Source of the DNA: an uncultured Poribacteria bacterium
GTDB lineage: Bacteria > Poribacteria > WGA-4E > WGA-3G
Reading direction: 5' to 3'
NCBI GenBank assembly: GCA_951813565.1
Contig: OX638351.1
Location: forward strand, 4,032,001-4,096,000
Length of the DNA: 64,000 nucleotides
The notes below the pieces were generated by a model, which saw only the letters and a list, made by a program, of their open reading frames with translations, was not told the DNA's origin and made no database searches. Shown one piece after another: positions 12,548 through 51,675 of this stretch. Position 1 is the first letter of the stretch. Each line of letters begins with the position of its first letter. A program made the translations under genes and the position numbers.

Positions 12548-12780
12548 ATAGGCGTCAATTTAGTGCCTGATTTTCTTGTGGGAGGGCTTTCTAAGCCCGA
12601 TATTGTGAGACTCAAATCGTTATATCGGGGTTGAAAACCCGCAGCATGCCAAACGCGCATGCTGCGTTGATTTGGACAAATGCCAAAAAGCGCATTTGGC
12701 GTTGATTTGGCAGCATGCCAAACGCGCATGCTGCGTTGATTCGCTCCCACAATAGGATATATCCTAAAATTGACGCCTAT
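12548..12780. mobile_element. Hairpin-duplicating MITE (ATAGGCGTCAATTT TIR), copy 1
   Basis: Flanked by a 21-bp direct repeat of the REP loop GGGTAGAGCGAAGCGAAACCC (12527-12547 / 12781-12801, 2 mismatches). Confidence 0.75.
12641..12743 (-). repeat. Tandem array of three 34-35-nt YRAATCAAC-hairpin modules inside a REP
   Basis: Units at 12641-12674, 12675-12709 and 12710-12743; removing them restores REP TCGGGGTTGAAAACCC|CTCCCACAA. Confidence 0.85.
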
Positions 12781-12970
12781 GAGTAGAGCGAAGCGAAACC
12801 CAACAATTCAACCGTCTTGGAAGTAATTTAAAGTTGAGTTTCACTCATTTTCCTGTTATTTCGGCATCAAATGGAGAAAAAATCGCTCTTTTATGTCCGA
12901 TTTTTTGTTTATTCCGTTCTACCCAACGGACAGTGGTTATTGAATTTTATTATCAAACTCACGTTAAATA

Positions 12971-13271
12971 ACCTAAGTTGCTACCTATGTAGCACAAACT
13001 TTATGAAGATTAATTTTTTAATTCGGTAATTTTCTGTCCGCACAAGGCAGGTGTACCCACCTGCTGGCGAGGTTTCCTAACCTCGCTAAATTGCCGATTT
13101 ATTTTTTTAAACTTCATTTAGTTTGTGTCATAAGGGCGCAAACTGAAAGTGCTATCAACGGTATGAATGCCTTAATGGCATTCCCCGTGCTACAAAATCT
13201 ATGCTAATAGTGAACTATCCGATTAAAAAGGTGTTTTTTATGTCAATTATCTTGTAGGTAACAACTTGAGT
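12971..13271. mobile_element. MITE family B (ACCTAAGTTG TIR) with nested TGAAG-ended element (13004-13116) and a mini-hairpin
   Basis: ACCTAAGTTGCTACCTA / TAGGTAACAACTTGAGT ends; TSD TAAATA; inner TGAAG..CTTCA element flanked by TTTA inside a REP. Confidence 0.7.
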
Positions 13272-13376
13272 TAAATAGGTAAGGTGGTTTGAGCAAAAAT
13301 GCTAATGAAACAAATGAGTATTAATGAGATACGTTCTGGTTAACGTTTCGGTTTCTGCTATCTTCAAGAATTACGC

Positions 13377-14234
13377 TCACTCACTATCTATCTGCGAATC
13401 ATCAAGCTGCTGTTTAAAAAGCGATAACTCCATTTTAGCTTCTTCACATTTTGTATCTATTTCTATTTCAAGTTCTTGTAGTCGCTTTTCCTGAAGGATT
13501 ATCAAATTGTCAACCTTATCAACTTTCTGCTTCGCATTATTAATATTATCATAATTTGTGTCTGAGCGGTTACAAAGTATCATTAACTCGCGATAGTATT
13601 TTATGCCTTGGTCTAATTGAGCCAATCCACCGTTAATATGTATTAGTTCAACGCGATACTGCTCTAAGTTTGCTCCTGTAAAGAAGCCAGAAAGTTTCTC
13701 TAAGGCTTCATTCAATTCGGTCAGCTGAATCTGTTTTTCAGACCAAAGTATCTTTTTAGCGATGCCATCAGCACTATCGTTGTCGATTATCGGTGCGTGA
13801 TTCCTAAGATTTTCTTGAAGTTGTTTTTCCAAGTCCCTTAACATTGATCGTAGATTTCTAATATCTTTTTTAAATTCATCGCAAAAATTACGAAATTCTG
13901 GAAATTTTCCATGGAGTTCTTGATGTTTCTGCTTCAGTTTTTCAACTTTTAAAATATAAGATGGATATTGAATTTTAAGATTCTTTGATATTTCAAACTT
14001 GAGATTTCGTAATTTAGTTGGACTTGGAGCGGTTCTTTCAAGACTCATCAGACCGCATAGAGTTGCCATTGAACCTGAAAATGAGAGAAGCATTGAACCA
14101 ACAAAAAATAGGATACTTTCCGCCGCTTGAGCCAATCCCAACCAACCTATTACACCAACAAATGAACCACTGCCTATGAGAACCATTGGAAAGGACAAAT
14201 ATTTTTTTATTTCATCTTTGGCTTTGGAATCCAT
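13377..14234 (-). CDS. Hypothetical protein, two TM helices plus long coiled coil
   Basis: 285-aa ORF with RBS AGGAG; AT-rich; no recognisable family. Confidence 0.65.
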   Translation of the reverse strand: MDSKAKDEIKKYLSFPMVLIGSGSFVGVIGWLGLAQAAESILFFVGSMLLSFSGSMATLCGLMSLERTAPSPTKLRNLKFEISKNLKIQYPSYILKVEKLKQKHQELHGKFPEFRNFCDEFKKDIRNLRSMLRDLEKQLQENLRNHAPIIDNDSADGIAKKILWSEKQIQLTELNEALEKLSGFFTGANLEQYRVELIHINGGLAQLDQGIKYYRELMILCNRSDTNYDNINNAKQKVDKVDNLIILQEKRLQELEIEIDTKCEEAKMELSLFKQQLDDSQIDSE

Positions 14235-14287
14235 ATTTATCTCCTATGTGTAGCATAATATCTCAACCCATTATGGGCAAACGCAGC

Positions 14288-14818
14288 TTAAGGTTTTTCA
14301 GCTAATAAAGTATCAATTTGTTTCTTGAGTTCCATGTAAATTTCTGGTTTGAAATTCGCTTTGCGATGAAAGACAATTTTTCCCTGCGATGAAATCAGAT
14401 ACAGATTAGGCTTCTTTTTTTCTGTCCGATAGCGTTGATGTACTTGCCCTTTCCAATCCATTAGGAACGTCACGGGTGGAGGCTTTCTCTTTATTCGGGA
14501 CCGAATAAATCCTTTTGGTATAAATCCTGGTACGCTCCGCATATCCGCAATAATATAAGCGGTGACCTGTTCGTTATCCTTATAATCTTTCTGGAACGCT
14601 TCTGCCCATTTGTCATCTTCTTTCCGAATCTTTCGATTGCCCATAATCAGAAGAACAAGTTTTCCACGCAGCTTCTTCAAATTGTGCTGTTTCTCCTCAG
14701 CATCTTGAAGGGTAAAATCTGGCGCGACATCGCCTACTTTGGGCGGTTTATCCTCTGCAAGGCTTATAACACTTACTAACATAACGCAAATGAACAGATA
14801 TGTAGCAACTTTCATCAT
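14288..14818 (-). CDS. Secreted thioredoxin-fold (AhpC/TSA, YtfJ-like) protein lacking redox Cys
   Basis: Signal peptide; VGDVAPDFTLQD...LRGKLVLL; no CxxC. Confidence 0.7.
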   Translation of the reverse strand: MMKVATYLFICVMLVSVISLAEDKPPKVGDVAPDFTLQDAEEKQHNLKKLRGKLVLLIMGNRKIRKEDDKWAEAFQKDYKDNEQVTAYIIADMRSVPGFIPKGFIRSRIKRKPPPVTFLMDWKGQVHQRYRTEKKKPNLYLISSQGKIVFHRKANFKPEIYMELKKQIDTLLAEKP

Positions 14819-18724: not shown

Positions 18725-18820
18725 AGTAGGCACGCGCCGCGTGCCGTAACCAAATTCAAAGAGGCGCAGCATGCCACACGCGCATGCTGCGTTGATTTGG
18801 CAATGAATTGCGCGACTACA
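18725..18820. repeat. GTAG-type REP pair, one arm carrying a mini-hairpin module (18766-18799)
   Basis: GTAGGCACGCGCCGCGTGCC and ...GCGCAATGAATTGCGCGACTAC; empty version at 33742-33768. Confidence 0.75.
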
Positions 18821-27989: not shown

Positions 27990-28154
27990 TAGGACTTACG
28001 CAATTTTCACGGTTTTTCCAATAATTATGACTCAAATGATGTAATTTTCAGCAGAATTCAGAGTTCTCAGCGCGTTTACAAAACGCCAAATCAAGAAATC
28101 AACGGTATGAATGCCATTTAGACATTCCCGCCTACCGTTTGTGCGTAAGCCCTG
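27990..28154. mobile_element. IS701-type MITE carrying a REP with a mini-hairpin insert (28087-28129)
   Basis: TAGGACTTACGCA / TGCGTAAGCCCTG ends match the IS end at 431-443; TTTAA on both sides. Confidence 0.75.
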
Positions 28155-33685: not shown

Positions 33686-33900
33686 TCCGTTGGGTAGAGT
33701 TTGCGAAACCCATAGACGTCAATATAAGAAGACAAGCGTTCGTAGTCGCGCAATTCATAGCGCCTCTTTCTGTTGAATCTCGGATTTTTCCCTTTTTCTT
33801 GTAGGAGCGAACTCCTGGTCGCGACATATTACGAACGATCGCGAGCTGGAGCTCGCTCCTACAGAAGAAATCGGGTTGAAAACCCCTCCTACAAGAAGAT
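33686..33900. repeat. Cluster of GTAG-type REP hairpins plus a one-ended hairpin-duplicating MITE remnant
   Basis: GGGTAGAGTTTGCGAAACCC-ATAGACGTCAAT; GTAGTCGCGCAATT; inverted pair GTAGGAGCGA...TCGCTCCTAC; TCGGGTTGAAAACCCCTCCTACAAG. Confidence 0.7.
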
Positions 33901-36236: not shown

Positions 36237-36283
36237 AATAAATGGGATAGTTGTATCGAAAAAGTGCTTACTTATCTATTTTA

Positions 36284-36778
36284 ACGTGAGTTTAATAATT
36301 AAATTGAATATAGTAGGTTGGGTAGAGCGAAGCGAAACCCATAAATCAACGCTATGAATGCCTTTTGGCGGAATACGCTTTTGGTATTCCGCATGATTCA
36401 GCCAAATCAACGCAGCATGCGCCAAATCAACGCCAAATGCGCTTTTTGGCATTTGGCGGGTGTCAATTTAAGGATTTATTTTAGGTTTCACACACTTTAA
36501 CCCAAACAACACCGTAACCCGATTGTAGGGGCGGGTCTCTGTGCCCGCCCGTTGTTTGAATACATCAGCAATGGCGGGGCACCAAATCAAGAAATCAACG
36601 GTATGAATCATGGCGAATGCCAAAAGCGCATTCGTCTTTAGTCATTCACCGGGTATGAATGCCTTATGTCATTCCCCGGGACCCCGCCCTACAAGGTTTG
36701 ACGGGATTTATCCCCTAAATTGACGCCTATGGGTAGAGCGAAGCGAAACCCAACCTACGGGATTTATCAAACCCACGT
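36284..36778. mobile_element. MITE family A with nested elements
   Basis: ACGTGAGTTTAATAA / TTATCAAACCCACGT ends; TSD TATTTTA. Confidence 0.75.
36341..36730. mobile_element. Hairpin-duplicating MITE, copy 2, with two mini-hairpin clusters (about 36343-36457 and 36583-36677)
   Basis: Perfect 21-bp direct repeat at 36320-36340 / 36731-36751; left TIR split by hairpin modules. Confidence 0.8.
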
Positions 36779-37785: not shown

Positions 37786-37994
37786 AGAGACATCCAATTG
37801 TTGAGTTTTCTTATTGAAAAATAAAGGATATAGTTTCCAAAAGTTGTATGAGGCACAATGAATTGCGCTTAAACGCTTTTGTTTTTCTATCCAGATCAAC
37901 CCGAATAGGCTTGGCAGAATACACGTGTGGTATTCTACATGATTCGTCGGATAGAACCCTCTAACAATATCAGGTGCGGTTAGGAAACTGCACC

Positions 37995-38403
37995 ATAGGC
38001 GTCAATTTAGGGGATAAATCCCGTCAAACCTTGTAGGGCGGGGTCCCTGTGCCCCATAGGCGTCAATTTAAGCACATAATTACCAGATTGTCTCTTGTGG
38101 GAGTGAATCAACGCCAAATGCGCTTTTTGGCATTTGGCGGGTTTGTAACCCCGATTTTGTGAACCTAAACTAATTAAATCGGGGTTACAAACCCGCAGCA
38201 TGTCACACGCGCATGCTGCGTTGATTCACTCCTACAAGAAAATCTATCCTTAAATTGACGCCTATGGGCGGGTCTCTGTGCCCCGCCATTGCTGATGTAT
38301 TCAAACAACGGGCGGGCACAGAGACCCGCCCTACAATCGGGTTACGGTGTTGTTTGGGTTAAAATGTGTGAAACCTGAAATAAATCCTTAAATTGACACC
38401 TAT
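37995..38403. mobile_element. Hairpin-duplicating MITE, copy 3 (inverted homologue of copy 2), containing nested copy 4 at 38056-38265
   Basis: 21-bp DR GTGCGGTTAGGAAACTGCACC at 37974-37994 / 38404-38424; inner copy flanked by an imperfect 19-20-bp DR and carrying modules at 38104-38138 and 38195-38228. Confidence 0.8.
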
Positions 38404-38519
38404 GTGCGGTTAGGAAACTGCACCTACCAGGTTAGGGTAATCGTGGTTGGAAACACCTCTAACTATGGTGACTTGTGCAATTGAATGTCTCTGGTTCATA
38501 TATAAAAAGTTTGACATTA

Positions 38520-39427: not shown

Positions 39428-39548
39428 TAATTCAGATTTCGTGTAGATTATATCTATCATCAGACGTGCTTTCTTAGACACAGAAAAAGTTTGTTGACTC
39501 GCCAGCGGAGAAGGAGTTAGAACAGTGGACAGAAATGGAAGGTAAAAA

Positions 39549-40958
39549 ATGAGCCCCCCCAATATAATTTTAATGATGTGCGACGACTTGGGATATGGTG
39601 ATGTCGGATTTAACGGAAATGGGATAATCAAAACCCCGAATTTGGACCTTCTGACGAGCAATGGGATCCGATTCACGCGATTTTATGCGGGAGGGCCAGT
39701 GTGCTCGCCAACGCGTGGCACGTGTTTAACTGGGCGACATTATTTTCGATATGGCGTAACACATGCCAATCGTGGGCACTTACCTGCACAGGAAATAACA
39801 CTGGCGCGAATGTTAAAATCCTTTGGATATGCAACCGGACATTTTGGCAAATGGCATCTGGGCACACTGGACCCAAATTATTCGGGTAAGCGCAATCGTA
39901 ATCCAGCACGGAATTACGCTCCGCCGTGGGAGCGTGATTACGATACTTCTTTTGCCACGGAGTATGCAGTTCCCACTTGGGATCCCGCAGTAGGTTTCCA
40001 GAGGGACGGAAAGCGTGTGGACCGCCCCTGGGCCTCGCCTTATTACGAAAATGGAACACTGGCAACGGAAAATCTGGAAGGATGCGATTCCCGGGTATTA
40101 ATGGATCGCGCGATTCCATTTATTGAACAAGCTATTGAAAATGTCAAACCGTTCTTTACGACAATCTGGTTTCACGCACCCCATAGCCCAGTCGTTGCCG
40201 GACCGGAATATCGCGCAATGTATTCCGAATATAGCGAAGATGAGCAGCACTATTACGGTTGTATTACTGCCATAGACGATCAGGTGGGACGATTGTATCA
40301 CACATTGGCGGCATGGGGCGTATCCCAGAACACCATGATCTGGTTCTGTTCGGACAACGGGCCCGAGGGGCGCACTGGTCGAGATGGCCGTAACCGTGGA
40401 TCAACAGGCGGCTTGCGCGGGCGAAAACGATCTTTGTTTGACGGTGGCGTGGGCGTACCCGCGTTATTGCACTGGCCAGGTCATGCAGACCCCGGTCGCG
40501 TGGTAGAAATGCCGTGCAGCACGTTGGATTACTTCCCGACAATCGCCGAGGTCATGGAATATGAAATGCCAGATAATCGTCCGATTGACGGCATCAGTCT
40601 GCTACCGACCATTGAAGGAAACATGTCAGAACGCCCCACTCCGATTCCGTATCGGTTCAACAGTGGAAAAGGCGCAATGTTTGGCGCACCGACCATCGCA
40701 ATGATGGACAACCGTTATAAATGCTTGACCAACCTATCGAGTGATGGCAGCGAAGATTTGTGTTTTGACATGATTAAAGACCGTGCAGAAACGACCAACT
40801 TGGCAAATGAACAACGCGAGCATATCGGGCAAACCCGCAAGACCCTGCGCGAATGGCTCCGCTCATGTGAGGTTAGCCACAATGGTGGGGATTACGACGA
40901 GGCTTATGAACCGGTCGCGCCATTTGAAGAAGTCACTGGAGACTGGCACTCAAGATGA
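39549..40958 (+). CDS. Sulfatase (Cys-type, S1)
   Basis: PNIIL...DDLGYGD, CSPTR....TGR, GKWHLG and SDNG motifs. Confidence 0.92.
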   Translation: MSPPNIILMMCDDLGYGDVGFNGNGIIKTPNLDLLTSNGIRFTRFYAGGPVCSPTRGTCLTGRHYFRYGVTHANRGHLPAQEITLARMLKSFGYATGHFGKWHLGTLDPNYSGKRNRNPARNYAPPWERDYDTSFATEYAVPTWDPAVGFQRDGKRVDRPWASPYYENGTLATENLEGCDSRVLMDRAIPFIEQAIENVKPFFTTIWFHAPHSPVVAGPEYRAMYSEYSEDEQHYYGCITAIDDQVGRLYHTLAAWGVSQNTMIWFCSDNGPEGRTGRDGRNRGSTGGLRGRKRSLFDGGVGVPALLHWPGHADPGRVVEMPCSTLDYFPTIAEVMEYEMPDNRPIDGISLLPTIEGNMSERPTPIPYRFNSGKGAMFGAPTIAMMDNRYKCLTNLSSDGSEDLCFDMIKDRAETTNLANEQREHIGQTRKTLREWLRSCEVSHNGGDYDEAYEPVAPFEEVTGDWHSR

Positions 40959-40991
40959 AACAGAAATTAGTAAAGAAAGAGTGCCATTCGG

Positions 40992-41074
40992 GTTCGGAAG
41001 GTATTTCCAGTTTGAAGGAAATTGAAACTGAATGAAAGAGTGGAAGGTGTATCTGGTCTGAATGGTATTGAGAC
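40992..41074 (+). CRISPR. Degenerate CRISPR-like repeat pair, no cas genes in window
   Basis: 37-nt GTTCGGAAGGTATTTCCAGTTTGAAGGAAATTGAAAC with an ATTTCC/GGAAAT stem and ATTGAAAC end; second 37-mer at 41038-41074 matches 25/37 ungapped; 9-nt gap between them. Confidence 0.45.
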
Positions 41075-41216
41075 GCAACAACTATGAGTCAAGCAAGGAA
41101 AAGGCACGTTTCCAAAACGTGCCTATATTTATGTTAATTTGTTCTTGTATGATTCAGAGAATGTGCTTCACAGTCAAGATGTGTACACAACAATTGAATG
41201 GCTCTGCTAACGATAA

Positions 41217-41429
41217 GGGTGTGTAAATATTTGGTTACATAGGTTCAATTTGCAATGATTACGCGGCGTTTTCCACTGTAGGGAGGGGTCCCTGTGCCCC
41301 GCCACTGCACAGGACGTGCCATGCAACGGGCAGGCACCAAATCAACGGTCCGAATGCCTTTTAGCATTCCCCGGAGACCCGCCCCTACAATAGGAGTTGT
41401 GCGGATTTCTACAAAAACTTTACACACCC
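41217..41429. mobile_element. ISKra4-type MITE carrying a REP doublet
   Basis: GGGTGTGTAAA / CAAAAACTTTACACACCC ends match the IS at 14871-16468; 9-bp TSD TAACGATAA; mini-hairpin at 41338-41372. Confidence 0.85.
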
Positions 41430-41445
41430 TAACGATAAAACTCCC

Positions 41446-41474
41446 TTGACAGGCGGTCCAGTCTGTGATATTAT
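41446..41474 (+). promoter_or_regulatory. Sigma70-type promoter
   Basis: TTGACA-17 bp-TATTAT with TGn. Confidence 0.6.
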
Positions 41475-41495
41475 GCCTACTTTATCAACACATGG

Positions 41496-42059
41496 ATGGT
41501 ATCTAATCTGGTAATGGAAAATTACGAACCTATTTTAAAACGGCTTGAAAAAACCGCAAAACAGTATACCAATATCGCACCCGAAAACGGGCAATTTCTT
41601 TCTATCCTCATCCGATCTATTCACGCGCAAAACGTCCTTGAAGTCGGTACAAGTAATGGTTACTCCACAATTTGGCTTGCGGCTGCGCTAAAGGAAACTG
41701 GAGGCAAACTCATCACCTTGGAGTTTGATCCAAAACGTGCAGCAGAGGCACAAGCACACCTCAAAGAAGTTAATTTACACGATATTGTTGAAATACGGGT
41801 TGGCAATGCACTTGATGAAATTCCTCAATGTAGTGCGACTGTCGACCTTGTGTTCCTTGATGCTGAGAAAAGCGAATACCGACGTTATCTTGAATTGGCA
41901 TTGCCTAACGTTCGGGCGGGCGGTTTAATTGTGGCTGATGATACCGTGACGATGCGCAATGAAATGTTGGATTATGTGGAATTCGTCTTTAACACATCTC
42001 TATTAAATTCTGTTGACATTCCTCTGGACGATGGTATAATTCTAAGCTATAAAACCTAA
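41496..42059 (+). CDS. O-methyltransferase (Methyltransf_3 family)
   Basis: VLEVGTSNGYSTIWLA, VFLDAEK and GGLIVAD motifs. Confidence 0.88.
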   Translation: MVSNLVMENYEPILKRLEKTAKQYTNIAPENGQFLSILIRSIHAQNVLEVGTSNGYSTIWLAAALKETGGKLITLEFDPKRAAEAQAHLKEVNLHDIVEIRVGNALDEIPQCSATVDLVFLDAEKSEYRRYLELALPNVRAGGLIVADDTVTMRNEMLDYVEFVFNTSLLNSVDIPLDDGIILSYKT

Positions 42060-42167
42060 GTGTAGATTGTTGATGGCGCATTCTTCCAGCGATCTGCAAT
42101 ACAGTCCAATTCGTGGATTTCCCAAGTTTTTAGGAGTTTATAACCTACGACTAAAGGAGGAACCAAA

Positions 42168-42956
42168 ATGATACGTTTTACAATTAGTTTTATCACCATA
42201 GGCTTGATGCTTGCACAACTCAGCAACGCTGAAATCGATCCGAATACTATTGTCGGTGCGTGGTTGTTTAATGAATCAAATGGAAAGGTCGCTGCAGATT
42301 CATCCGACAATGGTAATGATGGCGACCTTGTTGGCGGTGCGAAATGGGTAAAGGGTAAATTTGGCAACGCTATTGAACTTAATGGTCAAGATGCTTGGGT
42401 CACTGTTCCAGCGATCGGGCCGCTTAAAGACTTTACACTGTTAAAGTGGTTTAATTCGACAGGTAGAGTTGGGGCGTGGAGATGCTTTTTTAACCGTGAT
42501 GGTTGGGCTGCTGGGTATGTCCATTATCAATTTCGTCCGGACAATAAGATGGAGATGGCTATTCACTCCAACAATCCAGTGCGACACCCGGGGTGGCCTG
42601 ATTCAGGTTTCACAGCAGACCAAAGCACTTTGGATAAATGGTTCCATCTTACAGTTGCATACAGCAGTACCGAAGAATCAGTTCGCGTCTACTTTGATGG
42701 GGAACTTGATGCCGAGGGTAAATGGGGTCCTTTACCCGGTGAATTTGGACCTGGCCGCATTGGCTCATGGTCTGGAGGCGGCAGAGAGTGGCAAGGGATG
42801 TTCGATGAAATGTTACTCTTCAATGTCTCATTAGAGGAAGACGACATTCAGATGTTAATGCAACATGGCTTAGAAGGGGCACTCGCTGTTGAAGCAGCAG
42901 ATAAAGCTGCGACAATTTGGGGTAAAATTAAGTTAGGATTTATGGAAAATAGATAG
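42168..42956 (+). CDS. Secreted LamG (concanavalin-like) domain protein with C-terminal K.AT.W motif
   Basis: Signal peptide; W.F.E..G..A.DSS.NGN.G..G.KW..GKFGNA; tail AVEAADKAATIWGKIK. Confidence 0.88.
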   Translation: MIRFTISFITIGLMLAQLSNAEIDPNTIVGAWLFNESNGKVAADSSDNGNDGDLVGGAKWVKGKFGNAIELNGQDAWVTVPAIGPLKDFTLLKWFNSTGRVGAWRCFFNRDGWAAGYVHYQFRPDNKMEMAIHSNNPVRHPGWPDSGFTADQSTLDKWFHLTVAYSSTEESVRVYFDGELDAEGKWGPLPGEFGPGRIGSWSGGGREWQGMFDEMLLFNVSLEEDDIQMLMQHGLEGALAVEAADKAATIWGKIKLGFMENR

Positions 42957-43006
42957 ACACTTTTCGGCAAGCATTTTGCGAGGTTGTTTATAGACTCCTC
43001 ATATTA

Positions 43007-43295
43007 TAGTAAATTAACCTAAGTTGCTACGGACAAGATTTCAAGTTAGCAAACACTGCTTTTACTGAAAAAACAAGGCTTTTTCGCTGATTCTTATGTT
43101 TTTTGTTCTAAATCGGGGTTAGAAACCCCTCCTACAAGAGCATTGCGAAATAGGTGGCAACTTGGGTTAAATTATGTAAATAAGTTCACATATATTCTGT
43201 AGGAGCGCTCTCCGAATCGCGACGAAACCACTGTTAGTCGGGAATCGGAGTTTCCTCGGACAGCTCAGATGTCCAGTTAATTGTAGAATCCGCTA
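43007..43295. mobile_element. IS630-type MITE with nested family B MITE (43017-43167)
   Basis: Near-identical to 56803-56933; the insert is flanked by TSD TAAATTA, which occurs once in the empty copy. Confidence 0.85.
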
Positions 43296-43299
43296 TAAT

Positions 43300-44493
43300 A
43301 TGTCCCTTCAATTCAAACTCTCAGACAAATCCACCCGTTTCACAGAATCTGTTATCCGAGGCATGACGCAGTTATGTCTACGTCACAATGCGATAAACCT
43401 GTCGCAAGGCACACCCGCATATCAACCGCCGGATGTAGTCAAAGCAGCAGCAATTGAGGCAATTCAAGAAGGATATAACCAATATAGTATCACATGGGGA
43501 GCACCAGAATTTCGCGAAGCAATCGCACATAAAATGACGACTTTCAACTGCATTCCAACTGATGCTGCAAAAAATGTTACCGTCACCTGCGGCTCAACTG
43601 AAGGCATGCTATCCGCTCTACTTGCCATTATTAACCCTGGTGACGAGGTTATCATTTTTGAACCCTTTTATGAAAACTATGGGCCTGATACCATTATCTC
43701 TGGTGCAAAACCCGTCTATGTAGCACTTCAAGAAACACAAACTGCAGATGGTGTAATGCGGTTTGCTTATGATACTTCCGAACTCCAAAATGCTTTTTCT
43801 GCCAACACAAAAGCGATTATTGTAAATACTCCCAACAATCCGCTTGGCAAGGTTTTTACGCAAGACGAACTCCAACAGATTGCTGACCTCTGCTGTGAAC
43901 ATGACTGTATCGCTGTAACTGATGAGATATACGAGCATATGATCTATGATGACAAAGCGCATATCAGCATCGGATCTTTGTCGCAGATGCGGGATCGGAC
44001 GGTTACTGTGTCAGGATTGAGCAAAACCTATTCTATGACAGGATGGCGTTTAGGGTATGTCGTGGCACCTGAAGTTTTAACAGATGCAATACGCAAAATG
44101 CACGATTTCTTAACCGTCGGTGCGCCGCACCCCTTACAACGAGCAGGTGTTGTCGCGCTCAACCTGCCACCAAGTTACTATCAAGAATTAGTCGATAAAT
44201 ATAACAAAAATCGCAAAAGACTCGTTAATACACTTAGAGAGGCAGGATTCCGTTGTCATCCACCAGAGGCTGCCTATTACATTATGACAGACATCTCCGA
44301 TTTTGGATTTCCCGATGACACAGCATTTGCGCACTGGTTGGTCAAAGAAATTGGTGTGGGAGGCGTGCCGGGTTCCAGTTTTTACAGCCGCCCACACCTT
44401 GGCAAGACCAAATTTAGATTTATGTTCAGCATGGCGGATGATGTACTTGTTGAAGCGGGTGAAAGGTTAATGAAGATAAAATCAAAAATCTGA
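43300..44493 (+). CDS. PLP-dependent aminotransferase, class I/II
   Basis: INLSQG.P, NTPNNP.G, DEIYE and SKTYSMTGWRLGY motifs. Confidence 0.92.
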   Translation: MSLQFKLSDKSTRFTESVIRGMTQLCLRHNAINLSQGTPAYQPPDVVKAAAIEAIQEGYNQYSITWGAPEFREAIAHKMTTFNCIPTDAAKNVTVTCGSTEGMLSALLAIINPGDEVIIFEPFYENYGPDTIISGAKPVYVALQETQTADGVMRFAYDTSELQNAFSANTKAIIVNTPNNPLGKVFTQDELQQIADLCCEHDCIAVTDEIYEHMIYDDKAHISIGSLSQMRDRTVTVSGLSKTYSMTGWRLGYVVAPEVLTDAIRKMHDFLTVGAPHPLQRAGVVALNLPPSYYQELVDKYNKNRKRLVNTLREAGFRCHPPEAAYYIMTDISDFGFPDDTAFAHWLVKEIGVGGVPGSSFYSRPHLGKTKFRFMFSMADDVLVEAGERLMKIKSKI

Positions 44494-44669
44494 CCTGCAG
44501 TGACTGATTCGTTCAATTTTTCAGTAGTTTCCACATTCGGGCAAAGATCTCTTCTTGTAGGAACGAGCTCCAGCTCGCGACCTGTCTAATATTTTGGCGA
44601 AAACTCTAAAACAGAATCGATATAACAGTAACGGGTTATGACACGAAATTTTCATAGAGGAACAATATT

Positions 44670-44876
44670 ATGGATACAGTTCTTGATAACGAAACACGGG
44701 AAATCTTTCGATCAGAAATAGAAATAATTATTCAGCACGACGCAAAGTATATAACCCTCGGTCCTGATGAGTTTGAAGCAATTGTTAATGCATTTGAGTT
44801 TACTTTAACAAACGGACGCGAAAAGGTCAGAGCGCAAATGATATATGACCTTGTTCAAGAAAAAAGAGATAACTAA
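44670..44876 (+). CDS. Small hypothetical protein
   Basis: 68 aa; GAGGA RBS; stop lies 1 nt before the start of the SMC-like gene. Confidence 0.6.
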   Translation: MDTVLDNETREIFRSEIEIIIQHDAKYITLGPDEFEAIVNAFEFTLTNGREKVRAQMIYDLVQEKRDN

Positions 44877-44877
44877 T

Positions 44878-46761
44878 ATGCGGTTAGAGCGGATTCGTCT
44901 CAAGACATTCGGTTGTTTCCAACAGCAAGATTTTGAACTATCTGACGGTATCAATCTCATTTTTGGGCCTAATTTTAGCGGAAAAAGCACGCTTGTTAAC
45001 GCTATCTTTTTCACTTTAACCGGTAAACCGATAGTGCCAAGGGTTGATGCTGCAGCGATAAAGAGTGCAAAATCGTATAGCGGAACAGCTGGGCTGCAAT
45101 TCGTAGAAGATGGGGAACGTTATATGCTCTTCCGTGGCACCGGTAAACGTTTCCAACTCAGGCATGAAAAAGAAGGTAACTGGCACATTGTTTTTGATGA
45201 TAAACGTATCACGGTCGTTGAATCTATGCTAAAAGACAAGTTTGGGATTATGCATGACCGGCTTGCCTTGACAACATTCCTTCGCGAAGGTGAAATTTTT
45301 GAATTTCTTGCTCGACAACCCGCAACTCGACGCGATATTCTATTCGCGCTCCTCGGTATTGACAGATTGATAGAGGTTAGAGAACGGTTCATTGACGCAC
45401 GTCGCCTGGCGAAACGCGAACGGAGTAGGATTCAGGCACATCAGAATAGTCTACGGTTCAGTGCACAAAATGCACACAAAACAGAAATTGAAAGAATAGA
45501 AGCAAAATTGAAAGAACTTGAAGCGGCGGACAGTACGGAAACCGGAGATGCAGCATTAATCGCTGAATGGAAGCAGAACCACAAACAAGCACAAATACAA
45601 TTAGATACCCTCACACGAGAACAGACCGAAACCTTAAGTGGTTTCAACAGTATTTCCCACTTACGCGAGATGATAGCTACTATTGAAACAGCAGTTAAGG
45701 AAGCCGCAGGATTAGAGACGGAACGCGAGGAGCTCATCCAAAAAATTGGGAGTCTTGACTCTCAAATTGGAGGTTTGACGAATGTTTGTAACACCCTTCA
45801 CACGCTGATTGAGAGTGACGATGGACATTGTCCCACCTGCCATCAGAAGATAGAACGAGAAATCGTTCAGAAGATTATTGAGGAAAAGGAAACCGAAATA
45901 TCGCAACTATCTGCTGAATTAGAAACTCACAAGAAAACTTTAGCCGAAAAAACCGAAAGTTTAGAAAGTCGGCAGGAACTTGAACAGAGACTGCAGACCT
46001 TGCAGACGAAAGTAACTCGGTTAGAACAGCTTGAGCCAGATATTGATAAAATACAGACTGAAGTTAACACACTTACAACTCGGCTAAGTGAAAAAGGTGT
46101 GTTAGAACAAGAAACAACGGATGAATCAACCAACAACGATGGGCAATCTGTAGAGTCCATCCCCGAAAATATAGATAAACGTCAATTGAAAGCGCGAATT
46201 GACAGCGAACGGAAAAAACTTGAAAAACTTAAGCAGGAAGAGGCGGTGCAATTAGATAGACTTGAGCGACTCCAGAAGGTAAACGCTGAAGCAGAACAGG
46301 TTGAAAGGACAACGCTCAGTTTAGAACTCGCTTGTGCGGGTGTTGACAAAACCATTGAAACACTTCAACGCCAAATCCTTAAACCTGCGGAGGAGGAACT
46401 ACATCGCAGACTTGAACAGATGGAACTTTTTGGACGAACGCGTATTGACTTACAGAAACAACATTTGCTCCCTTCAGTAAAGATAGATGGTGTTGATCGG
46501 AGTTTGATGTTGCTCAGCGGTAGCGAAAAAATGTTCCTCTATCTCTGTTTTAAGGTAGCACTTGCCAAAGTTTTAGGCAATCCCGGTTTCTTTGTGTTCG
46601 ACGATCCAACGCTCCATTTAGATGGTGAGCGAAAAACGTTGATGGTGGATTTTATCCGAAAACTCTCCGAAGAACATCAGGTAGTTGTGACGAGTTATGA
46701 TGACAAAGTGCGTCAGGGATTGGAAGGTGCACATCTAATAGAAATGAAGCGGGAACTGTAG
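44878..46761 (+). CDS. SbcC/Rad50-like ATPase
   Basis: GPNFSGKST, coiled coils, CPTC zinc hook, LSGSE and FDDPT.HLD motifs; start re-called at MRLERI. Confidence 0.85.
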   Translation: MRLERIRLKTFGCFQQQDFELSDGINLIFGPNFSGKSTLVNAIFFTLTGKPIVPRVDAAAIKSAKSYSGTAGLQFVEDGERYMLFRGTGKRFQLRHEKEGNWHIVFDDKRITVVESMLKDKFGIMHDRLALTTFLREGEIFEFLARQPATRRDILFALLGIDRLIEVRERFIDARRLAKRERSRIQAHQNSLRFSAQNAHKTEIERIEAKLKELEAADSTETGDAALIAEWKQNHKQAQIQLDTLTREQTETLSGFNSISHLREMIATIETAVKEAAGLETEREELIQKIGSLDSQIGGLTNVCNTLHTLIESDDGHCPTCHQKIEREIVQKIIEEKETEISQLSAELETHKKTLAEKTESLESRQELEQRLQTLQTKVTRLEQLEPDIDKIQTEVNTLTTRLSEKGVLEQETTDESTNNDGQSVESIPENIDKRQLKARIDSERKKLEKLKQEEAVQLDRLERLQKVNAEAEQVERTTLSLELACAGVDKTIETLQRQILKPAEEELHRRLEQMELFGRTRIDLQKQHLLPSVKIDGVDRSLMLLSGSEKMFLYLCFKVALAKVLGNPGFFVFDDPTLHLDGERKTLMVDFIRKLSEEHQVVVTSYDDKVRQGLEGAHLIEMKREL

Positions 46762-46786
46762 GAATAGACTTCCTATATCAAAATAA

Positions 46787-48187
46787 CTAAAATCGTTTAA
46801 GAAAAATATCCCCATTATCCCGCTGGTTGTTACTCCAGACGACTGCACACTGCCCATTCCCAACGGATACGACAAAGGGTGGGAAATGCTCGCCTTCGCT
46901 TGTAGAGATAGGCACACCCTCTTTCTCCCATAATAGATTACCATCTAAATCAATTTGTTGACAGTAGATTGCGTCAACGCTTTTTTCGCCGAAGTCACCT
47001 CGGTAATCTATCCATGCAACAAAGAATTGATCTTCGGCAGATTGCACGATGAAAGGTCTATCTTGATGACCACCTGCGGTGCAAAGCGGGATACCATCAC
47101 TTTCCCAAGCCAACGTTCCGTCAGCACCAATGCGTTGCGTGTATAGGTCACCGTAGATATCGCGTTCGTCTCGCCACACAGCAATGATTCCACCCTTGCC
47201 GTCGTTGACAATTGCAGCGTTTTTTTGAATTTCGTCCGCAGTACAGACTGGAACGCCTATCTTCTGCCACAATTTCTTTCTGTCAGGAGAAATGCGTTGT
47301 GCATAGAGTTGGTCATTAATGAAATTTTCATATATCTGCCAGACAACTATAAGACCACTTTTGCCATCTGCCACTACACGTGGTTCACCTTGCATGCCGT
47401 TTTCTGGGGTAATGAGGAGCGGTGTATCCCATAAAGGTCTCGCGTCAAAACTGAGACGATATGCCATAATATGCCAAGCATCGTATCCAATAACGTCCCA
47501 CCACACAATGTAAAATCCACCTAATCCATCTGCAATAAGGATGGGATTGCTCTGTAGCGATTCCGATGGAAAAACAGGTATACCGTCCTGCTGCCACATC
47601 ATTGTCCCATCAGGATTGATACGTTGGATATAGAGGTCTTGGAATTCGGAACTTCGGCGTTCATCTTCCCATACGACGATTGCACCTCCCGCGCCATCAC
47701 TCAAAATTGCTTGCGTAGATTGGTCTGCAGCATTTGTGCAGATAGGAATTCCATCCGTTTGCCAAAGCACTTTGCCCTCAAGGTTTACGGCTTGGGCATA
47801 AATATCCCAACTGCCTCCACCACGTCTGTCGTTCCAAACTACGATTGCGTGCGTATCGTGCCGAATCATGCGTAAGCGACGTTGATTTCTATCTGCGGTG
47901 GATATCGGCAGACCGTCCGTTTGCCACATCGGTGTGTTATTGTTATCTACACGTTGCGCGTATACATCCCAATCCTTACCGGTGCGATAATCCTCCCATA
48001 CGACGATAACGCCACCTTTACCATCGTTTACAACTGACGGGAAAAGTTGACCATCTTTGGCAGTAGAAACGGATATTTTCTCAGACGCGGTTGTGGATTG
48101 TAGGAGACAGAAGACTCCCACAAGGAAAAGAGGAATGAACTTTACCAATGGGAAACTCATTCGGTGAAAAGCGTTTTTGGTGTCCAT
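46787..48187 (-). CDS. Secreted repeat (likely beta-propeller) protein
   Basis: About 7 repeats of DG.GG.IVVW.D.R....DIYAQR.....G...W..DG.P. Confidence 0.75.
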   Translation of the reverse strand: MDTKNAFHRMSFPLVKFIPLFLVGVFCLLQSTTASEKISVSTAKDGQLFPSVVNDGKGGVIVVWEDYRTGKDWDVYAQRVDNNNTPMWQTDGLPISTADRNQRRLRMIRHDTHAIVVWNDRRGGGSWDIYAQAVNLEGKVLWQTDGIPICTNAADQSTQAILSDGAGGAIVVWEDERRSSEFQDLYIQRINPDGTMMWQQDGIPVFPSESLQSNPILIADGLGGFYIVWWDVIGYDAWHIMAYRLSFDARPLWDTPLLITPENGMQGEPRVVADGKSGLIVVWQIYENFINDQLYAQRISPDRKKLWQKIGVPVCTADEIQKNAAIVNDGKGGIIAVWRDERDIYGDLYTQRIGADGTLAWESDGIPLCTAGGHQDRPFIVQSAEDQFFVAWIDYRGDFGEKSVDAIYCQQIDLDGNLLWEKEGVPISTSEGEHFPPFVVSVGNGQCAVVWSNNQRDNGDIFLKRF

Positions 48188-48654
48188 AAGTTGACCAATG
48201 TTCCTCTGGTATATAAATCAAGTGCTTCCCAATTCTGGATAGGTAGTTCAATATGTGCAAGTGCAGCTGTGGGCATCCGCTCAATTTGCCCTGTCAAGTG
48301 CCGCACGAGTTGTTCCATCGTTGGGTTATGCCCGACAACCATGACTCGCTGAAATTTATCAGGTAGTACTTGTAATTTTTCGATGTAAACGCCCGGTGGG
48401 GCAAGGTAAAAACGATCTAACCGCTTTACTTTGGCGGTATAACCACATGCTTTTGCGACCTTAGTAGCGGTTTTTCTTGCACGTTTGGCTGATGAGGTAA
48501 AAACACGATCTGGAATTAACTCTTGTTCACGCAGATGTTTTCCCATACGCGGTGCATCTTGTTTACCGCGTTTGTTAAGGGGACGGTCGTAATCGGATAG
48601 TTCTGGATTGTCCCAACTGGATTTGGCATGCCGCAAAATGAGAAGCGTTTTCAT
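48157..48654 (-). CDS. sixA: SixA-like histidine phosphatase
   Basis: RHAKS.W, D..RPL..RG, SSA.RA..T and VGHNP motifs; start re-called at 48654. Confidence 0.85.
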   Translation of the reverse strand: MKTLLILRHAKSSWDNPELSDYDRPLNKRGKQDAPRMGKHLREQELIPDRVFTSSAKRARKTATKVAKACGYTAKVKRLDRFYLAPPGVYIEKLQVLPDKFQRVMVVGHNPTMEQLVRHLTGQIERMPTAALAHIELPIQNWEALDLYTRGTLVNLWTPKTLFTE

Positions 48655-48697
48655 GGTAATTCTGCTATGATTTAGAACGTGAGTGTTCCTGATACTT

Positions 48698-49726
48698 TTA
48701 AATCTGTGTCCAATCCATGATGACACCTAAGTATTCACCCTTCCGATCAGTCAAACCATCATAAGCGGATTGTGCATCTTCGGGATTTATTACATGTGTT
48801 AGCAATTCCTCAACCTTGAATTTGCCTTCCTTGATAAGGGAATAAACTATTTGTGAATTCCGTTCAAGCGAATGTTTCGATTCACCTGAGTGCATTGTTG
48901 GATACACCCACTCATGTGCACTTCGCAGCGTGACCGCACCTAAGCCGATGAGATGCGAATAATTGAGTATCGCTGTAGCATTTGTGATATATTCTCCGCG
49001 TGGCGAACCGAGCAGGATGACCTCTCCTTTAGTGCGAGTCAACTGATATGCCAATTCGACAAGCCGTGGGTTGCCAATCGCTTCAACTGTAACCTCCGCC
49101 TTTTGCCCATCTGTTAAGGCTTTGACGCGTTCAATTACATCCTCTTCGTCAGGATTGATCAAATGTTGAATACCGCACTTTCGGGCAATTTCTATCCGTT
49201 CGGGGACCCTTTCAACGCTAATTACCTTCATACCAGCCAAATTGAAAAGTTGTGAGGCAGAATTGCCAACTAACCCTAAGCCGATAATGACAGCGGTATC
49301 ACCAAATTCAGCCGAAGAAACACGCAACGAAGTCATCGCGACTGTTGCCATTCGCACAAACGGAATCAGTTTAGCATCCATCTCTAACGGAGGTTTGAAC
49401 GTCAACATTACAGAAGCAGTTTTAACGATAGATGCGTGTGAGCTGTAGCAGAATACGTAATCTCCAACTGCACACTTTGTTACGTGCTCACCCACTTTTA
49501 GCACTTCACCAATAGCCGTGTAACCTGACCCGTGCGGAAACCGAGTCCCGCTTTCTAAACCGGTATATCCTGCGCCTTCGGTGCCGGGACTAATTAGACT
49601 GTAATGTGTTTTAAGCAAAATCTGGTTCGGTGCCAGTGTTTCGTCAAGTTCAAAATCTTCTAACGTTGCTGAACGTTTCGCTGGCATGATAATCTGTTTG
49701 CCTTTCATGGCGTTGCTCCTCATCAA
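48698..49726 (-). CDS. Zinc-binding alcohol dehydrogenase (MDR) family protein
   Basis: SLISPGTE, GY..IG.V and GLGLVG motifs. Confidence 0.85.
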   Translation of the reverse strand: MMRSNAMKGKQIIMPAKRSATLEDFELDETLAPNQILLKTHYSLISPGTEGAGYTGLESGTRFPHGSGYTAIGEVLKVGEHVTKCAVGDYVFCYSSHASIVKTASVMLTFKPPLEMDAKLIPFVRMATVAMTSLRVSSAEFGDTAVIIGLGLVGNSASQLFNLAGMKVISVERVPERIEIARKCGIQHLINPDEEDVIERVKALTDGQKAEVTVEAIGNPRLVELAYQLTRTKGEVILLGSPRGEYITNATAILNYSHLIGLGAVTLRSAHEWVYPTMHSGESKHSLERNSQIVYSLIKEGKFKVEELLTHVINPEDAQSAYDGLTDRKGEYLGVIMDWTQI

Positions 49727-49900
49727 GATTTATGAGTTCGTTTCAGTTGCTTTATGATAGCAGTGATAGGTTGGGAAGTCAAGATAATATTCAAGTTCTT
49801 GATAAAAACGTGAGCTAGGCATAAAGGCTTAGGTTGGGTAGAACGGAACAGAGAAAGAAGGCGTCAAAAGACAAACGTTAGGTTTCGCTCCGCTCTACCC

Positions 49901-50100
49901 ATAGCTGTCAATTTAAGGATATACCCTCTTGTGGGAGCGAATCAACGCAGCATGCGCGTTTGGCATGCTGCCAAATCAACGCCAAATGCGCTTTTTGGCA
50001 TTTGTCGGGTTTTCAACCCCGATAAACATATATAAATCGGGCTTATAAAGCCCTCCCACAAGAGGCAATCTGGTAATTATGTGCTTAAATTGACGCCTAT
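49901..50100. mobile_element. Hairpin-duplicating MITE, copy 5, with two-module array at 49938-50006
   Basis: DR (A/G)GGTTTCGCTCCGCTCTACCC at 49880-49900 / 50101-50121. Confidence 0.8.
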
Positions 50101-50124
50101 GGGTTTCGCTCCGCTCTACCCAAC

Positions 50125-51258
50125 CTACACACTATAGCTGCGATTAATACGAAAAGGACTTATATCAAATGTAGTTTCACCGGTAAGTGCTAATTCGCTC
50201 ATGATGCGTCCGACAAGTGAACAAAACTTAAAGCCGTGCCCAGAAAAACCTGCTGCTATCAACAGATTAGGACAGAGCGGATGCGCGTCAATAATAAAAT
50301 CTTCGTCCGGTGTTTCGGTGTAGAGGCAAACTTCAGTATCAACCGTATTACCAAGTTCGGGGACACGTTCGCGCAAATAGGTATCCATCCGTTGAATGTA
50401 ATCTGAATCGGGTGCGCGATTACACGTATTAGGCGAAACAGTTTGACCCATGCCGTGTCGTGCAACCTTTACACCGTTTTTCCCAAAAAAAGGCATACCA
50501 TACATAAATTCGTTTTCAGATGTAATCTCTGTAAAGATTGGGAACCGTTCTGGTTCAAACATTGCAATGTCGGAGGGTTTGTAATAGCAGACTTGCTGCT
50601 TTGTTACTGTGAGTGGTAGGTTCAGTTCTTTGAGTAAAGAGGATGTCCATGCGCCTGCAGTTACGATGATTTTTCTACCACGGAATTGGACGTCTTCCGT
50701 ATGGGCAATTGGAATATCAGATTGCCAATCTATTCGAGGGACAGGCATCTCTTCGCGAACATCAACTCCGTGTTTTTCTGCCACTTGCAGGTAAGTCAAA
50801 ACGCATTCGGAAGCATACAGAAAACCGGTATCTTTCTGCCAAAGGATATCCATATCATTAGAAACTCGAAATTGCGAGAACTGTTTCGCTAATTGTTTCG
50901 CATCCCACCACTCCGATTCAACGCCTGCTGCATCTAAACTTTGCCGAACAGAAGTCACATACTGATTTCCGCTTTCCCCTATATTAATACTTCCAGTAAT
51001 GAACAGTAATTGTTTCCCAGATGCTGATTCAAGATCGCGCCATTCTAAGTATGCGGTTTTCATCAATTCGGTGTAAAAGGGTTTATCGTAAAAGAAGCGG
51101 ATGATGCGCGTTTCCCCGTGTGAACTACCAAATGTGTGTCCGCGCTGGAATTGCTCTAATACAAGCACATCCGCACCTGATTTGGCAAGATGGTATGCGG
51201 TTGCACTCCCCATGCCACCTGCACCAATAACGATTGCGTCGTATATACGGGCCTGCAT
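50125..51258 (-). CDS. solA: N-methyl-L-tryptophan oxidase / monomeric sarcosine oxidase family
   Basis: GAGGMGS, GSSHG.TRI.R, CLYT.TPD..FIID and GFSGHGFKF motifs. Confidence 0.8.
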   Translation of the reverse strand: MQARIYDAIVIGAGGMGSATAYHLAKSGADVLVLEQFQRGHTFGSSHGETRIIRFFYDKPFYTELMKTAYLEWRDLESASGKQLLFITGSINIGESGNQYVTSVRQSLDAAGVESEWWDAKQLAKQFSQFRVSNDMDILWQKDTGFLYASECVLTYLQVAEKHGVDVREEMPVPRIDWQSDIPIAHTEDVQFRGRKIIVTAGAWTSSLLKELNLPLTVTKQQVCYYKPSDIAMFEPERFPIFTEITSENEFMYGMPFFGKNGVKVARHGMGQTVSPNTCNRAPDSDYIQRMDTYLRERVPELGNTVDTEVCLYTETPDEDFIIDAHPLCPNLLIAAGFSGHGFKFCSLVGRIMSELALTGETTFDISPFRINRSYSV

Positions 51259-51519
51259 TTCTATCCTTCACTATTTTGAGGTGAAACCATGACAGGGAAC
51301 ATTCTTGTCACTTGTTTGATATGTTAGCAGAAGTTACGGGTACCATGCAATAAAAAAGCGAAATAGCCTGACTTTGCGGGGAAACAGGGCTATTTAGTTT
51401 TCGGTTTTTCCGGCGTATTTCATGACATACTTTAATGTTTTATAGCAGCATTGTAGTCGAGTTTCGCTATCACTCTATCTATAGCCTCAACTTACAAAAA
51501 AGATGTGCTATGCAAAGTA

Positions 51520-51675
51520 GTAGGCACACGCCGGGGAATGCCTAAACGGCATTCGGACCCGGTGAATGACTAAAGACGAATGCGCAGTGGCGGGGCACAG
51601 GGACCCCGCTCTACAGTGGAAAACGCCGCGTAATCATTGCAAATTGAACCTATGTAACCAAATATTTACACACCC
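51520..51675. repeat. Half copy of the ISKra4-type MITE fused to mini-hairpin and REP remnants
   Basis: 51587-51675 is the reverse complement of 41217-41305; hairpins at 51533-51586 match those at 36626-36651 and 41347-41372. Confidence 0.7.

Follow-up and report, generated by a model that had tools for sequence, protein, structure and literature searches.

A short hairpin unit dispersed through a Poribacteria genome is, with high confidence, a non-autonomous, non-coding mobile element. Its mobility is demonstrated by orthologous filled and empty sites in three genes and in one strain pair. The host bacteria are sponge symbionts. Transposition of elements of 20-40 bases has gone unexplained since the cyanobacterial SDRs, and REP singlets are usually deemed immobile. 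In the family described here, copies number in the hundreds, stems covary, orthologous insertions are dated, strains are polymorphic and junctions fall into two classes, so that the question can be put to the test with short oligonucleotides and a few resident candidate enzymes.

Structure and abundance of the unit

The unit is made up of a 10-bp stem-loop, a fixed tail of 6-7 bases and 0-3 variable bases. The G that follows it is included in the closing pair of the stem, which is C-G in 31 of 32 units. Stem changes occur on both sides in 5 of 10 pairs (38 cells; 0/500 shuffles), in a covariation set chosen by a pattern that itself fixes part of the stem. On the head-first strand, where the YRAATCAAC head leads, A-C mismatches outnumber G-T mismatches by 90:36 (66:34 among distinct sequences), and wobble pairs therefore favour the opposite, hairpin-then-tail strand. 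The head is asymmetric and there are no terminal inverted repeats. Neither is there a GT[AG]G at the 5' foot of the hairpin; on one strand it is the fixed head that precedes this foot, and on the other the preceding bases are variable target DNA. Rfam searched at gathering score gave no match within the window, i.e., the whole 64-kb stretch of DNA that was analysed.

The source genome of the window (G000) contains 605 intact units in 512 arrays, 451 of them with a single unit, in addition to 288 interrupted heads; the unit is present in 26 of 27 genomes of the genus. The head matched 20 times in the window against 4.3 expected, and genome-wide a hairpin followed its 6-base core in 435 of 6,740 occurrences, as compared with 8-24 of 2,151-5,159 for six control words. 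The hairpin family proposed in a preliminary description of this DNA is thus real, and all three of its stem variants exist. The length given there, 34-35 nt, agrees with the peaks of in-silico excision at 34 and 35 nt, whereas intact units genome-wide range from 33 to 37 nt and mostly measure 34-36 nt. The flank was repeated in 456 of the 512 arrays versus 1,045 of 3,000 control intergenic positions. Units spread one at a time by insertion, and they are also carried along when REP composites are amplified; many copies derive from such composites, so that copies are not independent.

The starts of all 288 interrupted heads were tabulated and the 22 without a nearby continuation were inspected whole; none leads into a longer two-ended element, and this bears out the earlier view that the unit is non-coding, has one hairpin and moves whole, rather than being a remnant of something larger. 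A viral scan returned five matches, none with a stem, which we regard as chance. The GC skew of the source genome is irregular. No paper on this hairpin family was found in the literature searched, most subscription journals and supplements lying outside its coverage.

Copies within the window

The window holds ten intact units and one with a single mismatch. Type-A units occupy both strands. Three of them stand head to tail on the minus strand at 12641..12743 (12641-12674, 12675-12709 and 12710-12743; 34, 35 and 34 nt; heads CGA, CAA and CAA), in one arm of a REP-like palindrome. A further minus-strand unit (18766..18799) is a clean insertion at C^G, its host being a GTAG-tagged REP with 25 filled arrays and 162 empty copies. 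Two units with TGA heads share a REP doublet, one in its left arm (38104..38138, plus) and one, which carries the stem mismatch, in its right arm (38195..38228, minus). The plus-strand tandem at 49938..50006 (49938-49971 and 49972-50006; 34 and 35 nt) lies in a REP arm.

The type-B units are all on the plus strand. That at 41338..41372 sits in the loop of a REP for which 17 filled arrays were found, and at the position of the following G its empty copies have A in 134 cases and G in 6. The unit at 28087..28129 (end counted by hand) has one stem mismatch and a duplicated head, and the 36-nt unit at 13151..13186 lies in a repeat end; the genome has seven arrays of this type, with two target bases missing relative to the empty host. 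More complex is the nested stack at 36342..36457 (plus), in which a type-B unit with a TAA head is interrupted by a headless hairpin and followed by the 5' half of a type-A unit and then an intact type-A unit (36423-36457). The composite stack at 36583..36677 (plus; end counted by hand), with a duplicated head and nested hairpins, lies in a REP loop and is found again in many genomic copies.

The positions listed previously hold for the intact and one-mismatch units, but the head at 13151 is GCT instead of YRA, and 51533..51586 (minus) is a fragment of the composite stack that lacks the YRAATCAAC head. Likewise, the entries at 28087 and 36583 have duplicated heads, and those at 36343 and 36583 are nested stacks rather than simple units. 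The three empty host REPs reported with them are present on the plus strand (ends counted by hand): 33742..33766, of the kind filled at 18766 with one mismatch; 33871..33892, one G short of the usual form; and 43114..43135. A contig of run X9 has a unit at the equivalent position of a repeat resembling the 43114 host, a look-alike that does not imply identity of the locus.

Filled and empty sites

The filled/empty polymorphism at orthologous sites on which the preliminary claim of mobility turned was found in three genes and a strain pair. A lipoate-ligase-family gene has gained 36 nt in frame in 3 of 16 aligned orthologs, the other 13 being empty. In an ABC-permease gene the gain is a net 33 nt, again in frame, with loss of a target A (3 filled and 10 empty among 13 aligned), and in a DDE transposase gene the two filled orthologs carry different unit variants while 17 of the 19 aligned are empty. 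Two of the three insertions are clean, and none of the orthologous gene pairs has a target duplication; target bases were lost at the one remaining site. All lie in coding DNA outside any REP, in unique sequence with one or two bases of homology. Housekeeping proteins are lengthened in frame by 11-12 residues through the unit, with the frame kept in several species.

Between strains of 99.76% identity, one locus (L222, from a single metagenome assembly) has two units where the source genome is empty, next to a left flank unique to the locus. Because the insert equals a paralogous filled copy in the source genome but for two letters, gene conversion could explain it. At two other loci (L246 and L261), tandem arrays are one unit apart between the strains; differences at L247 and L268, at contig ends, were left out of the count, and L229 and L242 have no match in the source genome.

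Such strain-level differences are what host replication and repair might produce by themselves, through templated insertion and gene conversion with no dedicated enzyme. At a nick or stalled fork, a 3' end terminating in C would switch to the G-rich foot of another copy, be extended through its tail and come back by microhomology. The near-copy of a paralogous locus, the one-unit differences in tandem arrays and the loop-inverted units that occur in the genome agree with this, as do the microhomology seen at the tail end, the donor-flank bases carried over there and the lack of an enzyme that tracks the unit. However, it leaves the fixed length and near-invariant tail unexplained, and also the precise insertion into unique coding DNA, and we consider it rather unlikely.

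Other comparisons were less informative. Genomes G003 and G020 (94.5% identity, 95 kb aligned of about 1.2 Mb) yielded no clean filled/empty pair: units common to the two were filled in each, and repeat clusters elsewhere had wholly turned over. In relatives of the source genome at 80-94% identity, intergenic DNA was unalignable at two window loci. Six further unique-context sites in five genomes included two without a spanning ortholog, one filled in 3/3 aligned relatives, one with a degenerate unit in a relative, one that was too diverged and one where nine other letters stand instead of the unit. Contigs from public runs of four studies, covering window positions 32001-52000, broke at repeats, and among those listed none bridged a unit with unique flanks; these data are contigs, not raw reads, with no RNA run among the matches listed, and tandem arrays mimic a circle junction.

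Insertion junctions

The unit enters other repeats such as REPs, itself and occasionally genes. A G directly follows 460 of 488 non-tandem units in the source genome, and 79 of 87 non-tandem distinct contexts in other genomes. Junction classes were scored on the 292 arrays (15 host sites) with an assigned host, the other 220 of the 512 having none. Clean insertion 5' of a G, which the preliminary description took as the rule, accounts for 183 of these arrays and 8 sites, and there the absence of target duplication stands. The other 109 arrays belong to 7 sites at which the prevalent empty form of the host carries A or other bases instead of G (host-specific empty strings with A versus G: 77:0, 21:0 and 78:0); here, as in one of the three genes, the G replaces or adds to target bases, and the target is 0-3 bases shorter on the tail side.

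The first three bases of the head vary with the base before them (C|CAA 350, G|TGA 92, G|CGA 30, G|GGA 26 and A|TAA 17; n = 605), with few heads moved into new contexts (C|TGA 8, C|TAA 5). In the target, no base other than the C preceding the cut is constant, and there is no fixed target of 4-5 bases; C|G is the commonest site overall, and several non-clean host sites are C|T. Inspection of head and flank counts gave no uniform rule for guide pairing between head and target.

The two ends thus differ, one being fixed and one variable, a pattern that suits nick-and-transfer with repair better than a two-cut circle. Standard peel-and-paste of the IS200/IS605 type, with a Y1 enzyme cutting both ends and clean reinsertion of a single-stranded minicircle, would account for the clean arrays and the two clean genes, for the imperfect hairpin and for the few heads in new contexts. 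The tail moreover contains TTGAT and TCAA, reportedly the cleavage motifs of ISDra2 and IS608. On the other hand, the unit junctions are not at these motifs, the unit has one hairpin only, and a circle with fixed ends should neither replace target bases nor track the neighbouring base. The asymmetry of the junctions argues against this route, which we judge unlikely. As a source of the unit, the resident IS605 ends were rejected since their sequences differ.

Candidate enzymes

Mobilisation by an IS200/IS605 or RAYT Y1 enzyme, as first suggested, found no backing in the loci examined. None of ten Y1 loci in the source genome is bracketed by the unit, among the matches listed, nor is any of 40 in relatives, one of which lacks a candidate ORF. 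The hairpins detected beside 45 Y1 loci belong mostly to other REP families; units are sporadic there and, where read whole, lie inside such REPs. RAYT presence does not track the unit: the tested clade is present in 14 of the 25 genomes of the genus, but so it is in 28 of 40 genomes from two families whose sampled members show at most chance matches to the unit pattern. One genome (G023, 92% complete) has 42 units and no Y1 match. The resident candidates in the source genome include two intact RAYT-like proteins, encoded at 242008-242493 and 5070797-5071273, and an IS200-like protein encoded near 3098010. The IS91-family domain PF04986 gave no match in the source genome and none in 14 control genomes either.

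Reverse transcriptases (RTs) follow a similar pattern. In an RNA-templated route, a transcript fragment trimmed to the hairpin would be reverse-transcribed from the nicked target. Target-primed reverse transcription leaves one precise end and one microhomology end, as seen here, and the source genome has two RT genes. However, RT domains were detected in no more than 8 of the 23 genus genomes, with none found in the unit-rich G017, G014, G018, G023 and G048, and the head-first strand, the RNA in such a route, carries the A-C mismatches and is less often sense than the opposite orientation (134 vs 191). We regard this route as very improbable.

One of the RT genes, near 3.99 Mb of the source genome, adjoins a CRISPR-like repeat and an ORF that we take to be Cas1-like. 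This would fit a half-site reaction by an integrase (Cas1-like or DDE-like) or another recombinase, in which the 3' end of the unit would attack the target on the head-first strand, with repair at the other end. The junction asymmetry fits this polarity too, and CRISPR spacers resemble the unit in length. Yet the duplication that such enzymes usually leave is missing, the strict conservation of tail and stem is left unexplained and the wobble bias favours the other strand, making this reading improbable.

Proposed mechanism

Our preferred reading, held tentatively and at slightly less than an even chance, is a one-ended nick-and-join route with host repair at the tail end. On the hairpin-then-tail strand, the nick in the target would fall directly 3' to a C (C|G, C|C, C|T or C|A), and the free 3'-OH would be joined to the donor unit exactly at the hairpin foot or would prime its copying from there. 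Host repair would then close the tail end at 1-3 bases of microhomology, a step that may carry over donor-flank bases and remove a few bases of the target. The nick would most plausibly be made by an HUH/Y1 nuclease acting in trans, e.g., one of the resident REP-associated RAYTs, with the unit as a one-ended parasite of the REP system. In the accessible parts of the published work, TnpA-REP cuts C|T and C|A and leaves a 3'-OH capable of priming or attack, while in the inverse REP its cut is at CTAC (PMC8266576, PMC3333891). Against the nick-and-join route, C|G, the commonest site of the unit, is not among the published TnpA-REP sites, the unit lacks a GTAG guide, and no enzyme is tied to it by the loci or genome distribution examined.

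A wider proposal, possible but doubtful, is that the unit represents a one-ended minimal transposon, in which a hairpin of about 34 nt with its tail takes advantage of nicks that REP-associated HUH nucleases of the host introduce, becomes attached exactly at the foot of the hairpin and relies on host repair for completion. If true, the smallest mobile DNAs would have a general means of movement, by which SDR-type elements would be accounted for as well.

Comparison with known systems

Unlike MITEs, the unit has neither terminal inverted repeats nor target-site duplications in orthologous pairs. It resembles rolling-circle elements (IS91/ISCR, Helitrons), as generally described, in having a hairpin, then a short conserved 3' tail and flank carry-over at that end, but is far shorter. 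With IS200/IS605 elements and their non-autonomous derivatives it shares the imperfect hairpin and the absence of terminal inverted repeats and target duplication; it differs in its single hairpin in place of two ends, the lack of a fixed target, the occasional loss of target bases and the absence of likeness to resident IS605 ends.

Like GTAG-tagged REPs, BIMEs and REPINs, the unit is a short, intergenic, clustered hairpin with hundreds of copies, as far as the accessible parts of these papers describe them (PMC3116915, PMC3333891, PMC8266576, PMC3733652, PMC6006769). It also shares with REP/REPIN-RAYT systems, in the portions available, that it now and then inserts into a gene in frame and that its junctions lie on the 3' side of a C, as TnpA-REP cuts do. 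Unlike REPs, it has no GT[AG]G tag and no cognate RAYT flanked by it. In Pseudomonas, the available text takes the doublet to be the mobile unit and REP singlets to be immobile, whereas the present unit moves as a singlet, needs no inverted doublet and sits inside REPs.

The nearest known elements are the cyanobacterial SDRs, a likeness drawn from descriptions and not from compared sequences. SDR1-8 of Nostocaceae, attributed to Elhai and co-workers in 2008, are reportedly 21-27 nt long, with conserved hairpins, no target duplication and no known enzyme. SDR5 inserts precisely into HIP1, according to the accessible text of papers that cite SDRs (PMC4390886, PMC2884548, PMC3116915). With such mobile repeats on record, the label of an undescribed system is too strong, at least as far as those sources go. 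The unit departs from SDRs in its 33-36 nt, its fixed single-stranded tail, its phylum, its REP and self targets and its asymmetric junctions with loss of target bases. What it shares with them is a very short dispersed module, precisely inserted into other repeats: it is below 100 nt, occurs in many unrelated contexts (15 host sites and genes), is present or absent at orthologous sites without duplication and keeps its structure despite sequence change.

Units in the window and the genome

The head motif of the unit (YRAATCAAC) matched 20 times in the 64-kb window, compared with 4.3 matches expected by chance, and Rfam gave no match for the window. In the whole genome (G000; 5.43 Mb, 43% GC), a hairpin directly followed 435 of 6,740 head cores, as against 8-24 for six control words. 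A strict definition returned 605 units: 437 of type A, with a 25-26-nt near-perfect hairpin and 33-35 nt in total, and 168 of type B, with a bulged hairpin and mostly 35-36 nt long. These form 512 arrays, 451 of which hold a single unit. Outside this set stand 288 heads in interrupted or degenerate form, and no longer element was found behind the 22 of these that have no nearby continuation, which argues against the units being remnants of larger two-ended elements.

Ten intact units lie at the window positions listed in the preliminary description, where we also found variants: a variant-head unit at 13151, doubled heads at 28087 and 36583, a nested stack at 36343 and a headless copy at 51533. 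The doubled heads represent the 14 A|GAA cases in the genome-wide head count, and the tail may be able to multiply independently. At 36342-36457, 36583-36677 and 51533-51586, headless hairpins lie inserted in the arms of other units, with a few bases replaced; such composites have 10-45 copies each and arose possibly by insertion plus local inversion. The window also contains an IS630-family transposase in two ORFs (38447-39412, + strand), of which the genome has two other copies at ~99% identity, and selA overlapping an FGE-sulfatase-like gene (33959-36236, - strand).

In 31 of 32 sequences, a count complemented by folds, the last head base pairs with the G following the unit, so that this G is the closing base of the stem. 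Covariation was found for 5 of 10 pairs (38 cells; 0 of 500 shuffles; 0-5 cells in slid controls) in a set of related sequences whose selection pattern itself fixes some of the stem. A-C mismatches exceed G-T mismatches on the head-first strand, by 90:36 over 432 units and by 66:34 when each distinct sequence is counted once, indicating that wobble pairs favour the opposite strand, with hairpin first and tail last, and the sense strand between co-directional genes is hairpin-first in 191 cases vs head-first in 134; the events in these counts, as in the covariation, are not independent.

Filled and empty sites

When flanks were joined in silico around 641 units (a broad definition), an empty form was found elsewhere in the genome for 298, with excision lengths peaking at 34 and 35. 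The proposed mobility was borne out by filled/empty polymorphism at orthologous sites in three genes. A lipoate-ligase-family gene (G000:4511630; 15 of 19 loci aligned) has a 36-nt unit in frame at C^G, filled in 3 genomes and empty in 13. With 12 of 14 loci aligned, an ABC-permease gene (G000:1292617) shows a net in-frame gain of 33 nt, filled in 3 genomes and empty in 10. For a DDE transposase gene at G000:3913161 (Pfam match below cut-off), 18 of 19 loci could be aligned; one C^G site carries different unit variants in G000 and a relative, G048, implying two hits or later conversion, and is empty in the best copies of 17 genomes. In two copies of this DDE element (G000:C1:5245093-5245730 and 1053405-1054044) matching stops ~10 bases before the unit site and restarts ~400 bases on, an internal deletion adjoining the unit hot spot.

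A strain represented by one metagenome assembly matches G000 at 47 of 49 loci, mostly at 99-99.9%, and has 67 of the 71 G000 units that it covers. Locus L222 contains two units where G000 is empty, with a left flank unique to that locus; since a nearly identical insert occurs at a paralogous G000 locus, conversion is possible there. As an account of the whole family, insertion and conversion templated by the host only are unlikely. Two arrays (L246, L261) differ by one unit between the strain and G000, and old insertions are common to the relatives G003 and G020. The strain also differs from G000 at L245, L249, L257 and L258 in the presence or absence of ~110-170-nt repeat elements and of a ~1-kb IS-like segment. 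Loci L411-L413 share an old unit with G000:3310561, with a 15-16-nt loop insertion in three relatives that starts with a head-like word.

Junctions

The hairpin-foot end is fixed, with G next in 460 of 488 non-tandem units. The tail end is variable, its first three bases tracking the preceding base, both in G000 and across 98 distinct contexts from other genomes. We placed 292 arrays at 15 host sites. The clean insertion before G that had been proposed applies to 121 C^G arrays from 7 sites plus 62 G^G arrays from a single site; the remaining 109 (7 sites) have, relative to the common empty host, lost an A, gained a G or lost 2-3 bases, so that clean insertion is only one of two classes. Host-specific empty strings carried A rather than G at 77:0, 21:0 and 78:0, and in one host the G variant had 6 copies vs 134. 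For two shorter G-variant strings we counted 24-25 occurrences, at least some of which we read as belonging to filled composites or to another REP. Loss of the A was also seen at the orthologous unique site in the permease gene, and the extra-G form at L222. On the hairpin-first strand these junctions lie 3' of a C. This signature is testable and unusual.

Candidate enzymes and mechanism

The genome has 10 Y1 loci: five IS605-type, two IS200-like and three RAYT-like. The IS605-type loci were rejected as the unit source, their ends being unrelated to it. The preliminary description also looked to Y1 or RAYT loci bordered by the hairpins; no unit bracketed a Y1 gene in the 45 loci inspected (40 from relatives, five of G000), where the hairpins detected were mostly GTAG-type REPs, several from families hosting units. 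Y1 genes occur in 36 of 40 genus genomes, but G023, with 42 units, gave no Y1 hit. Of 25 genus genomes, 14 carry the tested RAYT clade, as do 28 of 40 genomes from two other families. Several RAYT lineages of the genus (L270-L309) each have different flanking REP families, and one RAYT clade extends across the entire order. The IS91-family profile PF04986 matched neither G000 nor any of 14 control genomes.

Reverse transcriptase domains occur in 8 of 23 genus genomes. In G000 the region C1:3988991-3996100 has a 465-aa reverse transcriptase gene beside a CRISPR-like repeat array and an ORF that we take to be Cas1-like, and a second, divergent gene of 511 aa lies at C1:811749-813284. An RNA route for the unit is very improbable.

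The unit moves singly, has one fixed and one variable end and a junction 3' of a C, and its structure is conserved. A circle released by two cuts is doubtful and an integrase-type half reaction improbable. According to PMC8266576, TnpA-REP cuts single-stranded DNA at C|T, with C|A as a further site for one homologue, freeing a 3'-OH able to prime synthesis or attack a phosphotyrosine; PMC3333891 adds cutting of the inverse REP at CTAC and the ability to act at a distance. We tentatively favour, as a real possibility, a TnpA-REP-type nick that would free a 3' end in the target; this end would be joined to a donor unit, or prime on it, at the hairpin foot, and repair would close the tail end through microhomology. 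Weak points of this nick-and-join proposal are that no enzyme is tied to the unit, that the C|G site dominates and that units have inserted into coding DNA outside REPs.

Distribution

In a named-genome scan, 75 of the 80 loci listed (the best 80 of 117 stretches) have Poribacteria titles; the five others among the matches listed comprise three chance-like loci and, from an 'uncultured bacterium', two unit-like ones. Of 27 genomes in the same genus, 26 carry the type-A pattern, at 1-318 copies each; among 33 genomes from five other genera of the family, 19 have it at low copy. A looser pattern gave 0-2 matches, none unit-like, in each of 16 genomes of three other families. The window sequence was found in sponge metagenomes. 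Only 4 of 605 units lie inside ORFs of at least 200 aa, though such ORFs make up 77% of G000, and repeated flanks were found for 456 of the 512 arrays, vs 35% of control intergenic positions.

Comparison with known elements

A literature search that covered few subscription journals found no published account of this hairpin-unit family. The unit fails the defining tests of REPs and REPINs, of IS200/IS605 derivatives and of MITEs. Pseudomonas REP singlets are considered immobile in PMC3116915, and REP insertions into genes are already documented in PMC3733652 and PMC6006769. The unit works like the cyanobacterial SDRs. The SDR literature is cited in PMC2884548 and PMC3116915, and PMC4390886 describes precise insertion of SDR5 into HIP1.
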